Positions 4,601-31,433 of a DNA stretch of 64,000 nt are shown here, piece by piece. The position numbers were made by a program, and so were the translations under genes. Within the stretch, counting starts at the first letter, position 1. Every line of letters begins with the position of its first letter. The stretch is from NCBI RefSeq assembly GCF_028641065.1, contig NW_026576728.1, forward strand, positions 1 to 64,000. Direction: 5' to 3'. The DNA is from Leucoraja erinacea (lineage: Eukaryota). Under the pieces are notes generated by a model, which saw only the letters and a program-made list of their open reading frames with translations, ran no database searches and was not told the origin of the DNA.

Positions 4601-7600
4601 AAAGATCACCATCGCCTTCCTCAGGCACACCCTATGGGAGTAAGTTCCTCTTTACTCTACTCTCTGACTGTAAACACTTGAACTCCATTTTCCCTTTGTT
4701 TAACACTTTCCCTGTCGTTAACTTTGGATAAATATTAAATAAATGGAAACCTTCTGGTCTGAGCCATCGTTTGCATTGTTGTCAGGGGGTCTTCAGATGG
4801 TCAGAGAAGCATACATGGAAAAGTAACGGGCGATTTTTAAAAAAGAATGAGACAAAAAATCTAGTTTCAGCTTTCTCAATGAAACGCAGGAACAATTAGG
4901 CAGTTGGAAATGATTAACAACTGAATGTGGGAAAAGTTGGGGTTTGACATCCACAAACACTGAATTCACACCGGAGTTTATTTGATCGCTGCTTATTGTG
5001 TGGGAGAGAGTAGACACACTGCCCAGCACCACACGACTGAACCACAATGCTGCAAGGATTATAAGAACATCCATTTCTAACAAAGGTGAATGCACTAATT
5101 CATTGCCCAAAGCCAGGGTCAAACACCAATCTAAAATTAAATAAAACATATTTACAGTTTATTCCTCATCTTGCTTTTGTTGCCAGATAACCGGGCATCC
5201 TTGACTCTTTTAACTACATCTCAGTTTCTGTTTCCTAAGCCTTCTATTTTCTCATATTTAAGCCATCTCTCATCATCTGTTCCCTCATGAAAACTGTTGC
5301 AGGCACTCTGTGAATCCTGTGTGGATTCATCTGATCCCATTTTACCTTTCCCCATTTCACTACCCTCAGCCCCAAATCACCACAGATCAGTACGTTCTCT
5401 GGCAAGATGCTGAGATTTGTTGATCAGCAGACAGATGCAGTGATTCTTCAACCAGGACAAGTGAAGATCAACGGACAAAATTAAATAAATGTGAAATATT
5501 GACCTTTAGCTCAAGAGGGCTGGATCACAAATAGGAATTATCTTACAGTATTGGCAGATTTATCTAAATTAGTTCCACCTTCTTGGGTACACTGCTGCAC
5601 AGATTCACCAGGTAAATATTAAGATGAAGATTAATATCAGAACGAAGTATGAAGAGCTGGTCATAGACTGTCCCAAGCAGGGCTGGAAGGCAAGGTGTAT
5701 GCCCATAGCGGTTGGCTGCAGAGGTTTTGCAAGGCAATCGCTCTACAAAGCCTTGAGTGCACTGGGCATCAACGGAGTGGTGAGGAGAAAGGCCATCAAG
5801 AACACCACAGAGGCAACAGAGAAGGCCTCGAGATGGCTCTGGATCAGGAGAGAATGTCCATGGGGAGGAGCGAATGCCACCTTAACACAAGTCGTGGTCT
5901 GATCAACCACGGCTGGGTCGCCTGGGCGAAGGTGTCTGATGTTGAAAGACCCGAAGCACCCAATGACCCCAGGTTACATCACTGATGATAATAATAATAA
6001 TAAATTTAATTTATATAGCGCTTTTCTAAGACTCAAAGTCGCTTTACAATAGTAACAGACAATAGCAGACGGAGAAGCGGCGAACAAAGAGCGCCAGCGT
6101 CCTCTCCGTGCAGCACATAAAGAAAGAATACAGACATAACAGTAATAAAGAAATTTAAACATAGAAACATCCCCCCACAAAGTCCAGTCCCCATCCCATG
6201 TCCATGGGCCTATTGAGGCCTCCACAGTTGCCTCCACGGAGGCCCGATGTTCCAGGCCGTTCTCGCCGGGTGGTGTTGCTCCGGCGTCGGGAGAATCCTC
6301 TCAGCGGCATGGGAACCCTGGAACGGCCGCTTCCGTACTGGAGGCCGCGGCTTCCGAAGCCAACAAGGCCGCGCCGGATGGAGCTCCACAACTGGCGATC
6401 TCATCCAGAGATCCCAGGCTCCCGATGTAAAGTCAGCGCCGCCGCCCGCAGCTGGTCGCTCCTCAGACCCACAGATCCGCAATGCTTTTTTATCGCCGGT
6501 CCCAGCATACCGGAGTTCCAGTGCGGCGACCCGGGCAAGGCATTGCCCGCTCCGCGATAGCGCTCCAGTGCTGTGCCGCCGCTGAAGCCGTGTTACTGGG
6601 CGGTCCCCGACAGGAAACGCCGCTCCAGGCCCACTGGTAGGCCGCGAGGACGGGTCGAAACTGCAGCCCGGAGAAAAGCTGCCTCTCCGACCAGGTAGGG
6701 ACCCTGAAAGATATTTTCCCCCCTCCCCCCCCCCCCACATAAAAAAGTTTAGACCTCCAGAACAAAACACTTTAACTAACTAACTAACTAAAAAAAAAAA
6801 AAAGATGAAGATAAGGACAGCTACTGGCTGGGCAAGTACAAAGTGCACAAGTACAAAGTGCACAGATTTGATTTGCACTCCTGCAGGTACAAATGATTCA
6901 TGAAATATTATTTTGTTGTTGGGTTTGTTGTATTGAACCCTAACCATCAGAATCCAAATCACTACAAACGTCAGGTATTATCACAACGTTTAGCAGGTAC
7001 TATCGCAACATTTCAGAAACATTTGGACAAGTACGTGGATAGAACAGGTTTAGAGAGATATGGGCCAAAGGCAGGCAGGTGGGACATGTTAGTCAGTGTG
7101 GGCAGGTTGGGCCGAAGGGCCTGTTTTCACACTGTATGATTCGATGAAAATATAACCCAAATTGTTTAACATCTGGTGTTGGTTTATAATGTGATCTCTA
7201 TCTTATTTCCAGTTTAAACCAAAACCTGGAGATTTGATTGAAATACCTCGAAAGCGTTGGTATAAACACTGGGCCCTCTACATGGGAGATGGAGACGTCG
7301 TGCATTTAACTTCAGGTAAAAGCTGTTCACTTTTATTCTCCTATTTAACAAGTTTTGCATTGTAGACTTCTCTGCCCATGTGTAATTCAACCCATACCAG
7401 GGATACTATCAGATGATAAAAGACCATTTAATATCTATTCTAGATGGTGCAAGTGGAGATACGAGTACTCGATTCTCTAGGTCGGAAGGGATTGGTGTGA
7501 TTAAGAGGGAGCCTCTCGCTGACGTAGCTGGCAATAATTCCTGGAAAGTCAACAATAGATTCGACAAAATATGGAAACCATTACCCGTTGACAAGATAAT

Positions 7601-30200: not shown

Positions 30201-31433
30201 CAGGTAAGTGCAGAAACATAAGACCATAACATATAGTAGCAGAATTAGGCCATTCGACCCATCAAGTCTATACTGTCATTCAATGATCTATTTTTCCCTC
30301 TCAAACCCATTCTCCTGCCTTCTCCCCATAACATCTGATGCCCAACCTACTCCAAGAACCTATCAATCTCTGCCTTAAAAATACCCAATGACTTGACTTT
30401 CAACGTCGCCTGTGGCAATGAATTCCACAGATTCCCCACCCATTGGATCAAGAAATTTCTCCTCATCTCCATTTAGATTTTCTGAGGCCGTAAAGTTTGG
30501 TCCAAGACTCTCCAACTACTGAAAACATACTTTCCATATCTACTTTATCCAGGCCTTTCATTATCTGGTAGGTTTCAATGACTTCCCCCCCCTCCTCATC
30601 CATCTAAACACCAGCGAGTGCAGGCTGAGAGGTCAACGCCATCAATTTCCTCATCCAGATAATAACCTGGACAGAAAACCATTGAGGGGCCTGAGATGTC
30701 TTTGGCCCTCCAAATGTATGGGACATGATGGTTCAAAGGCGTTACATGTTCAGTGGCTGGTTTTGTACATTTGGCAGTGAAGGAGACAACTCACTCCACT
30801 GGGTGATGACTGGGGTCAAGTTTAGAGCAGAATTGTATTCCAAACCAAGTCACACATGGGAGAGCAGGAAATAGAGGGATATGGATCAAGAACAGAGAGC
30901 TGAGATCAGTTTAACTATGCATCATGTTCGGCACAAGCAATGTGGGTCGCAGGTCCCATTTCTGTGCTGTACTCTTCTGTGTTCTATCTTCTTGAGGGAA
31001 GGGGAGGCAAAGGTACCGTGGGCAGGTCACCAGATGTCATGTCATCGATGACATGTTTGGATGTTTAAGAAAGAACTGCAGATGCTGGAAAAATCGAAGG
31101 TAGACAAAAATACTGGAGAAACTCAGCGTGTGAGGCAGCATCTATGGAGCGAAGAAATAGGTGATGTTTTGGGTCGAGACCGCTCTTCAGACTGTCACCT
31201 ATTCCTTCACTCCATAGATGCTGCCTCACCCGCTCAGTATCTCCAGCATATTTGTTAGGATCACACAGTCACTTGGAACATTTTTGCTGTGGAATCCATG
31301 ACTAAACATATTTTTTTCCCTACAGGCTGAGGATGCAAGCCTTGCTATTGGTGTAGGGTCTATCGCCACTGTAGCTGTAATGGGTGTCGGTGCCATTCTT
31401 ACCCTTCTATTGGGGGGGCATCATAAACAATGA
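27292..31433 (+). CDS. PLAAT-family gene B2, intact, ~165 aa (exons 27292-27306, 29700-29808, 29938-30203, 31326-31433)
   Basis: [43 protein letters not shown]...NCEHFVNKLRYGEKISYQ|AEDASLAIGVGSIATVAVMGVGAILTLLLGGHHKQ*. Confidence 0.88.
27344..27731 (-). mobile_element. Solo LTR, 388 bp, 5-bp TSD CTGGT
   Basis: TG...CA termini; minus-strand TATAAAAG and AATAAA; absent from the A and B1 introns. Confidence 0.8.
29700..29808 (+). CDS. PLAAT B2 exon 2
   Basis: H-box; canonical splice sites. Confidence 0.9.
29938..30203 (+). CDS. PLAAT B2 exon 3
   Basis: NCEHF motif; 266 nt. Confidence 0.92.
31326..31433 (+). CDS. PLAAT B2 terminal transmembrane exon
   Basis: Near-identical to 24273-24380. Confidence 0.82.
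   Translation, partial: AEDASLAIGVGSIATVAVMGVGAILTLLLGGHHKQ

Follow-up and report, generated by a model that had tools for sequence, protein, structure and literature searches.

Catalytic exons diverge beyond their flanks in a tandem PLAAT array of the skate Leucoraja erinacea

Do the catalytic exons of a tandem PLAAT array in the skate Leucoraja erinacea differ through selection for new variants, and what might the selecting agent be? The window analysed here is a whole stretch of 64,000 nucleotides at the start of one contig (G000:C1547:1-64000). Five cassettes, each an exon 2 plus exon 3 of the LRAT/PLAAT type (A1, A2, B1, B2 and C), were found in the window, and four further ones (X1, X2, X3 and Y1) at the end of contig C918, making nine in the array. 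As C918 terminates within the array and C1547 starts close to it, a single array broken between contigs is the simplest reading; the two could also be haplotypes, in which case some of the differences would be allelic. GT-AG splice sites and an open frame, with no stop or frameshift, were present in all nine cassettes. The reading we put forward, to which as a whole we give an even chance, is that the catalytic exons of this array diverge beyond their flanks and are exchanged in patches, that selection favours new variants, that gene A (A1 plus A2) codes for a double-domain protein and that the agent is infection.

Over 369 nucleotides (nt), A1 and A2 differed at 18 bases, with 15 amino-acid changes and one purely synonymous codon, and the 128-nt intron between their exons differed at one base. 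B1 and B2 differed at 12 positions in exon 3 and three in exon 4, all non-synonymous. These counts reproduced exactly those of a first-pass annotation made from the letters alone. Its statement that the copies differ almost only at amino-acid-changing sites held for the exons quoted but had omitted exon 2 of the B pair, in which there were 13 differences, four of them synonymous steps by path averaging. Its intron yardstick, correctly counted, was a low draw, since duplicated non-coding DNA differed at 61 of 2957 sites (A) and 68 of 3180 sites (B), or 2.1%. Exons differed by 4.9–5.6%, ca. 2.5-fold more than these flanks. Non-synonymous sites differed by 5.8% (A) and 7.3% (B), above the flank rate with P values of ~1e-4 to 4e-4 and 1.5e-6, respectively, and synonymous sites (1.8% in A; 4 of 116 over B exons 2–4) did not differ from the flanks. 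Exon divergence exceeded that of the flanks in all 16 pairs, which are not independent, and that of every equal-length non-coding window in 11 of them. Compared with their Amblyraja counterparts, the domain of gene C differed at 4 of 125 residues, that of B2 at 16 of 125 and those of A1/A2 at 24–26 of 117; gene C is thus a slow internal control beside B2 and A1/A2.

Informative sites of the six A-type cassettes fell into blocks with conflicting groupings (permutation P 0.0005), and both states were present in other cassettes at 12 of the 18 A1/A2 differences and 7 of the 25 B1/B2 differences. Four segments were preferred by a breakpoint search. Codon models were fitted with our own code, whose M0 likelihood agreed with that of IQ-TREE, with the first five columns masked, as was an ambiguous stretch of eight codons in X2/X3. 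On a single tree, M1a/M2a gave a doubled log-likelihood difference (2dL) of 10–13 and M8a/M8 a P of 2e-4 to 7e-4, and P for M1a/M2a and M7/M8 ranged from 2e-4 to 6e-3 across settings. Of 92 data sets simulated with recombination but without selection, 39% were significant at the 5% level and 16% gave a 2dL at least as large as the observed 12.5. With so many false positives the single-tree site test is not evidence here and was rejected, including the M7 versus M8 comparison that the first-pass annotation had proposed as a check; the case is a worked warning for the standard test on such arrays. Partitioned M1a/M2a on the nine cassettes gave a 2dL of 7.6–8.2 (P ~0.02) with a dN/dS (omega) of 2.1–2.4 in the selected class; when 21 null data sets were analysed in the same way, 2dL was at most 2.15. 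Substitutions private to one cassette numbered 33 non-synonymous and three synonymous, and three nulls that included recombination gave so extreme a count in 1, 0 and 0 of 150 simulations. Positive selection was therefore found after correction for recombination, at moderate strength, and we regard it as likely for these cassettes. The signal is real and smaller than the raw counts suggest: diversifying selection, as first proposed, outlasted the gene-conversion correction in weaker form (omega of about 2.4 in the partitioned test), and a dN/dS significantly above 1 was recovered in the nine-cassette test but not overall or in the A-type subset.

The first-pass annotation had taken A1 and A2 as paralogous genes; they are instead two in-frame cassettes of one gene on the plus strand. 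The coding part of the gene A start exon (1668..1682, MGNQQ, phase-0 donor) matched the N-terminus of database model P0002. Cassette A1 (exon 2, 7213-7315; exon 3, 7444-7709) coded for one full LRAT/PLAAT domain with phase 0 at both ends and its His-His-Cys triad intact, and cassette A2 (exon 2, 13107-13209; exon 3, 13338-13603) for a second full domain, also with an intact triad. The last exon (14392..14619) coded for a hydrophobic segment and then, up to the stop, a tail of Ser/Thr/Lys/Val repeats. Four start exons and four last exons served the five window cassettes; one of each flanked the A1/A2 pair, and none of either kind lay between A1 and A2. At the duplication junction (8311..8312, plus strand) intron 3 abutted an intron-1 copy starting 9 bases past the start-exon donor, and this junction was identical to two on C918 (190037/8 and 211627/8). 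Because a cassette has phase 0 at both ends and holds exactly one domain, gene A runs from the start exon through two successive domains to the hydrophobic tail, and its predicted spliced product is a membrane-anchored enzyme with two domains. Database models had the same form: P0002 (326 aa) is the two-domain gene A, P0001 (437 aa) has the three domains of gene X, the three-cassette gene of C918, and P0003 of Amblyraja has two. Genes B1, B2 and C had the canonical single catalytic domain.

It is possible, though we think it rather unlikely, that the gene A cassettes are used alternatively, one being skipped or the transcript ending in intron 3, to give single-domain isoforms; this would concern the architecture only and is compatible with selection. 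Each cassette alone preserves the frame, with phase 0 at both ends. A1 and A2 have identical GT-AG sites, lie 5.4 kb apart and are jointly in frame, so nothing forces their exclusion, and uninterrupted two-domain open reading frames (ORFs), such as spliced messenger RNA would give, were found in five Logan clusters from other species. No RNA data set was listed with a match to the gene. When contigs of four of 21 listed runs were aligned to it, no splice joint was found among the matches listed; one 269-base contig, of a run guessed to be RNA, corresponded exactly to exon 3 and another extended exon 3 into the intron, which is uninformative. Between A1 and A2, window 9005-10513 held a decayed retroelement-like insertion, which was bypassed in contigs of three other runs and lacking in the sister introns. 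A short tandem repeat in the last exon (window 14500-14616) varied in unit and number in gene X and Amblyraja, and the Ser/Thr/Lys/Val tail that it encodes was predicted as disordered in the structure model.

All four domain pieces searched scored over the cut-off for the LRAT domain (PF04970), and two last-exon pieces had no family. An AlphaFold model built on an alignment of 39 sequences had two PLAAT domains, both well folded (mean predicted local distance difference test score 79.6). The model matched human PLAAT2/3/4 with Z scores of 17.4–18.2, a root mean square deviation of 1.6–2.5 Å and 45–55% identity, and had the permuted NlpC/P60 fold. The last exons were hydrophobic by inspection, and the model had helices at 250-264 and 270-280, partly of low confidence. 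The triad with NCEHF was present in all five window cassettes, as first described, and in seven of the nine in the array; X1 and Y1 on C918 carry Asp in place of the first catalytic His. This His deprotonates the catalytic Cys (PMC4624172, available text), and its column was invariant across 100 non-skate single-domain relatives, so the X1 and Y1 cassettes are likely to be catalytically dead.

Over the nine cassettes, 61 of 120 codons were invariant. When the variable sites were placed on the secondary structure of the model, they concentrated at residues 17–21 (the turn before the His), 72–86, 98–101, 110 and 123–124 (P0002 numbering), mostly in loops; changes thus clustered before the catalytic His, around residues 72–86 and just past the Cys helix. 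Such positions would also suit positive selection of a non-immune kind, with duplicated copies diversifying in their preference for lipid substrates or membranes (skin, lens, liver lipid or N-acyl-lipid metabolism). Within the family, swapping one linker alters substrate specificity (PMC5133064, available text), and PLAATs have lens and lipid roles (PMC10760033 and PMC4624172, in the parts available). Recurrent exchange of the same patches and rapid turnover from one skate genus to another fit a moving target better than a single act of specialisation, and with the IRF-type motif described below they lead us to consider this explanation unlikely.

An immune cause of the selection is our leading guess, drawn by analogy and with roughly even chances. 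Zebrafish PLAAT1 reportedly dampens interferon (PMC9510373). In mammals, as far as the accessible portions of the sources go, PLAAT3 is an essential host factor of picornaviruses (bioRxiv 10.1101/2024.04.06.588386; PMC8316810), some of whose 2A homologues, those of parechovirus, are catalytically inactive (same bioRxiv report); PLAAT4 is a hepatitis A virus restriction factor driven by IRF1 (PMC10201418), with a variable number of copies in bats (PMC10415932); and in primates HRASLS2 ranked among the top candidates for accelerated evolution of exons (PMC3906575). For plaat3, a survey of 66 mammals gave no positive selection, according to its available text, and long branches in Myotis (PMC10760033). 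At the skate locus the only hint of immunity is an interferon regulatory factor (IRF)-element-like motif (8875..8886, minus strand) in the duplicated intron-1 segment, which resembles the PLAAT4 promoter site quoted in PMC10201418. Copies were present at 28282-28293 and 35858-35869, with a variant at 4571-4580, and none was found in gene B1. Three matches to the consensus were present, compared with 0.13 expected, all being copies of one element.

The array could have been built as follows. Unequal crossing-over would have duplicated entire genes and, on one occasion, only the cassette. Conversion between the copies would then hold intron divergence near 2%, while exon patches that differ are kept and reshuffled. 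By analogy with mammalian PLAAT3/4, the last domain, beside the hydrophobic tail, may act on damaged or pathogen-modified membranes, and the upstream domains might supply avidity or specificity and be free to lose catalysis, as by the His-to-Asp changes of X1 and Y1.

Several points weigh against selection by infection on a double-domain array. Pairwise comparison of non-synonymous with synonymous changes against neutrality gave P 0.10–0.19 for A1/A2 and 0.06–0.16 for B exons 2–4 (4 synonymous of 28), so that no pair alone was significant save for hand-picked B exons 3+4; both combined gave P 0.014–0.06. The six A-type cassettes alone were not significant after partitioning (P 0.10–0.17) or in a tree-free comparison of the two kinds of change (P 0.45), and the overall omega of the nine cassettes, 1.1–1.3, was not significantly above 1. 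The sites that vary here tend to be ones at which vertebrate PLAATs in general tolerate change (rho 0.53), a pattern expected under relaxed constraint too. The two-domain transcript is predicted from genomic anatomy and a gene model. The IRF-type motif was picked after the fact, its three matches being copies of one element. Finally, the skate cassettes nested in a cartilaginous-fish clade (support 0.99) in a 124-residue tree whose deep nodes are unreliable. One-to-one orthology with mammalian PLAAT3 or PLAAT4 is consequently not supported by the sequences, and the functions of those proteins are analogies only. The host-pathogen cause first suggested may hold, with the motif as its one local hint.

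Part of this evidence would also fit an array with no positive selection, in which redundant copies are relaxed and conversion imports older exon patches, giving an omega near 1 and an apparent excess in exons. Recombination is strong here, as the permutation result and the shared states at 12 of 18 A1/A2 differences indicate; the single-tree test has its 39% of false positives, M0 omega (~1.2–1.3) is not significant and two cassettes have lost the catalytic His. Relaxation, however, is unable to raise amino-acid sites above the flank rate, the count of private substitutions, like the partitioned test, is inconsistent with nulls that include recombination and full neutrality, and all nine cassettes are free of stops and frameshifts; we disfavour this account and hold it to be quite improbable. 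Consensus errors in an assembly through 97%-identical repeats are a most improbable source of the differences or mosaics: the array is split over two contigs that are possible haplotypes, but errors have no reason to be commoner in exons than in introns, both contigs and the Amblyraja proteins share the same variant patches, and Amblyraja too has a gene with two domains and a mosaic C of B-like and A-like parts.

The remaining window genes, all single-domain and on the plus strand, lay downstream of gene A. B1 (20104..24380; P0016) comprised a start exon (20104-20124), exon 2 (22333-22441), exon 3 (22881-23146) and a last exon (24273-24380). B2 (27292..31433; P0015) had the same order (27292-27306, 29700-29808, 29938-30203 and 31326-31433). 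Its intron 2 (window 29809-29937) was 129 nt long, in frame and stop-free, so that retention would add 43 residues to the loop after the second catalytic His. Gene C (34875..39957; P0011; exon 2, 37892-38000; exon 3, 38129-38394; last exon, 39814-39957) was a mosaic of a B-like exon 2 and an A-like exon 3. Its start-exon homologue had AGG at 34875-34877, where the sister genes have ATG, and P0011 begins further upstream; gene C may therefore begin with a different first exon, or its expression may be decaying.

Immune arrays such as those of the major histocompatibility complex (MHC) and APOBEC3 are diversified by gene conversion and positive selection, and APOBEC3 has both single- and double-domain genes. 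Like them, the skate array has patchwork exons, flanks that have been homogenised, a catalytic cassette duplicated as a whole and some domains that have probably lost catalysis; the protein families are unrelated. Its nearest likeness in protein is to human PLAAT2/3/4 (HRASLS2, PLA2G16/HRASLS3 and RARRES3/TIG3), with which it shares the LRAT domain, the triad with NCEHF, a hydrophobic C-terminus, the fold and clustered paralogues. The human PLAATs reviewed in the accessible part of PMC4624172 have one catalytic domain, in contrast to two in skate gene A and three in gene X. Picornavirus 2A H-box/NC proteins belong to the same superfamily (Z 9.2–9.7 for Aichivirus 2A and ~5 for parechovirus 2A) but have 18–21% identity, and parechovirus 2A is non-catalytic (bioRxiv 10.1101/2024.04.06.588386, available text); this homology is no evidence of interaction with the skate proteins. 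PLAAT4 of bats has likewise expanded in a lineage-specific manner, with copies induced by double-stranded RNA (PMC10415932). The available text of that report deals with gene copy number alone, unlike the domain tandems, gene conversion and dN/dS described here, and bat gene models in our homologue searches had 2–5 domains.

More surprising than the selection signal is that duplication of a whole cassette within a gene recurs across vertebrates. At least two domains were found in 58 of 172 proteins from three homologue searches, one of which used a two-domain query that enriches such hits; a halibut model had about eight. Most of these multi-domain sequences are predicted gene models. Nine models with linkers of more than 22 residues were set aside as possible gene-model fusions and 49 were kept. 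In these the triad was intact in 39 of 49 last domains and 36 of 72 upstream domains, compared with 107 of 112 single-domain proteins; pooled, the bias towards dead upstream domains had a P of 0.001, kinship being ignored. The bias was present in marsupials, songbirds, teleosts, afrotherians, shrew/mole and sturgeon; frogs, squamates and cartilaginous fish lacked it, and in bats it was reversed. Tandem domains mostly clustered inside their own lineage in the tree, indicating repeated origin or repeated homogenisation. The five Logan clusters with uninterrupted two-domain ORFs consisted of contigs of 1.2–1.8 kb, and one member was on 24 contigs. In the literature searched, which left subscription papers and supplements outside, no description of the skate array or of tandem-domain PLAATs was found. 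The first-His-to-Asp change of X1 and Y1 also occurred in a clade of mammalian tandem-domain proteins from bats, elephant and tenrec, in which the Cys was lost as well (P0073, P0074, P0076, P0094, P0097, P0098 and P0108).

PLAATs are usually treated as single-domain lipid enzymes; a cartilaginous-fish array probably under positive selection and reshuffled by conversion, together with recurrent multi-domain forms that have dead upstream domains in bats, songbirds, flatfish, marsupials, lizards and frogs, would suggest a long-running selective conflict and an overlooked architecture. A bolder proposal, which we advance as a speculation with little chance of being right, is that vertebrates repeatedly built tandem-domain PLAAT defence proteins, an undescribed class, through duplication of the symmetric catalytic cassette; in these the membrane-proximal domain would cut lipids and the upstream, often dead and fast-evolving domains would sense pathogen proteins or damaged membranes or act as decoys for them. 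If so, the skate array would show this build-up in progress, with one, two and three cassettes and a first-cassette His changed to Asp. The array offers specific surfaces and natural chimeras for functional study.

Pfam hits among the flanking ORFs (147 and 138 scanned) placed exons of a PACS-family gene downstream of the array (minus strand, window 50555-60654) and one Forkhead-domain exon upstream (L012:9183-9659, at ~169.2-169.7 kb of C918), ~15 kb from the array. Human PACS1 lies in the same 11q region as the PLAAT2-5 cluster. Two more PLAAT-like genes were found outside the array, L030 (G000:C370:22049-22156) and L021/L034 (G000:C14), and exon 2 of the former looks nearer to tetrapod PLAATs than the array copies are.

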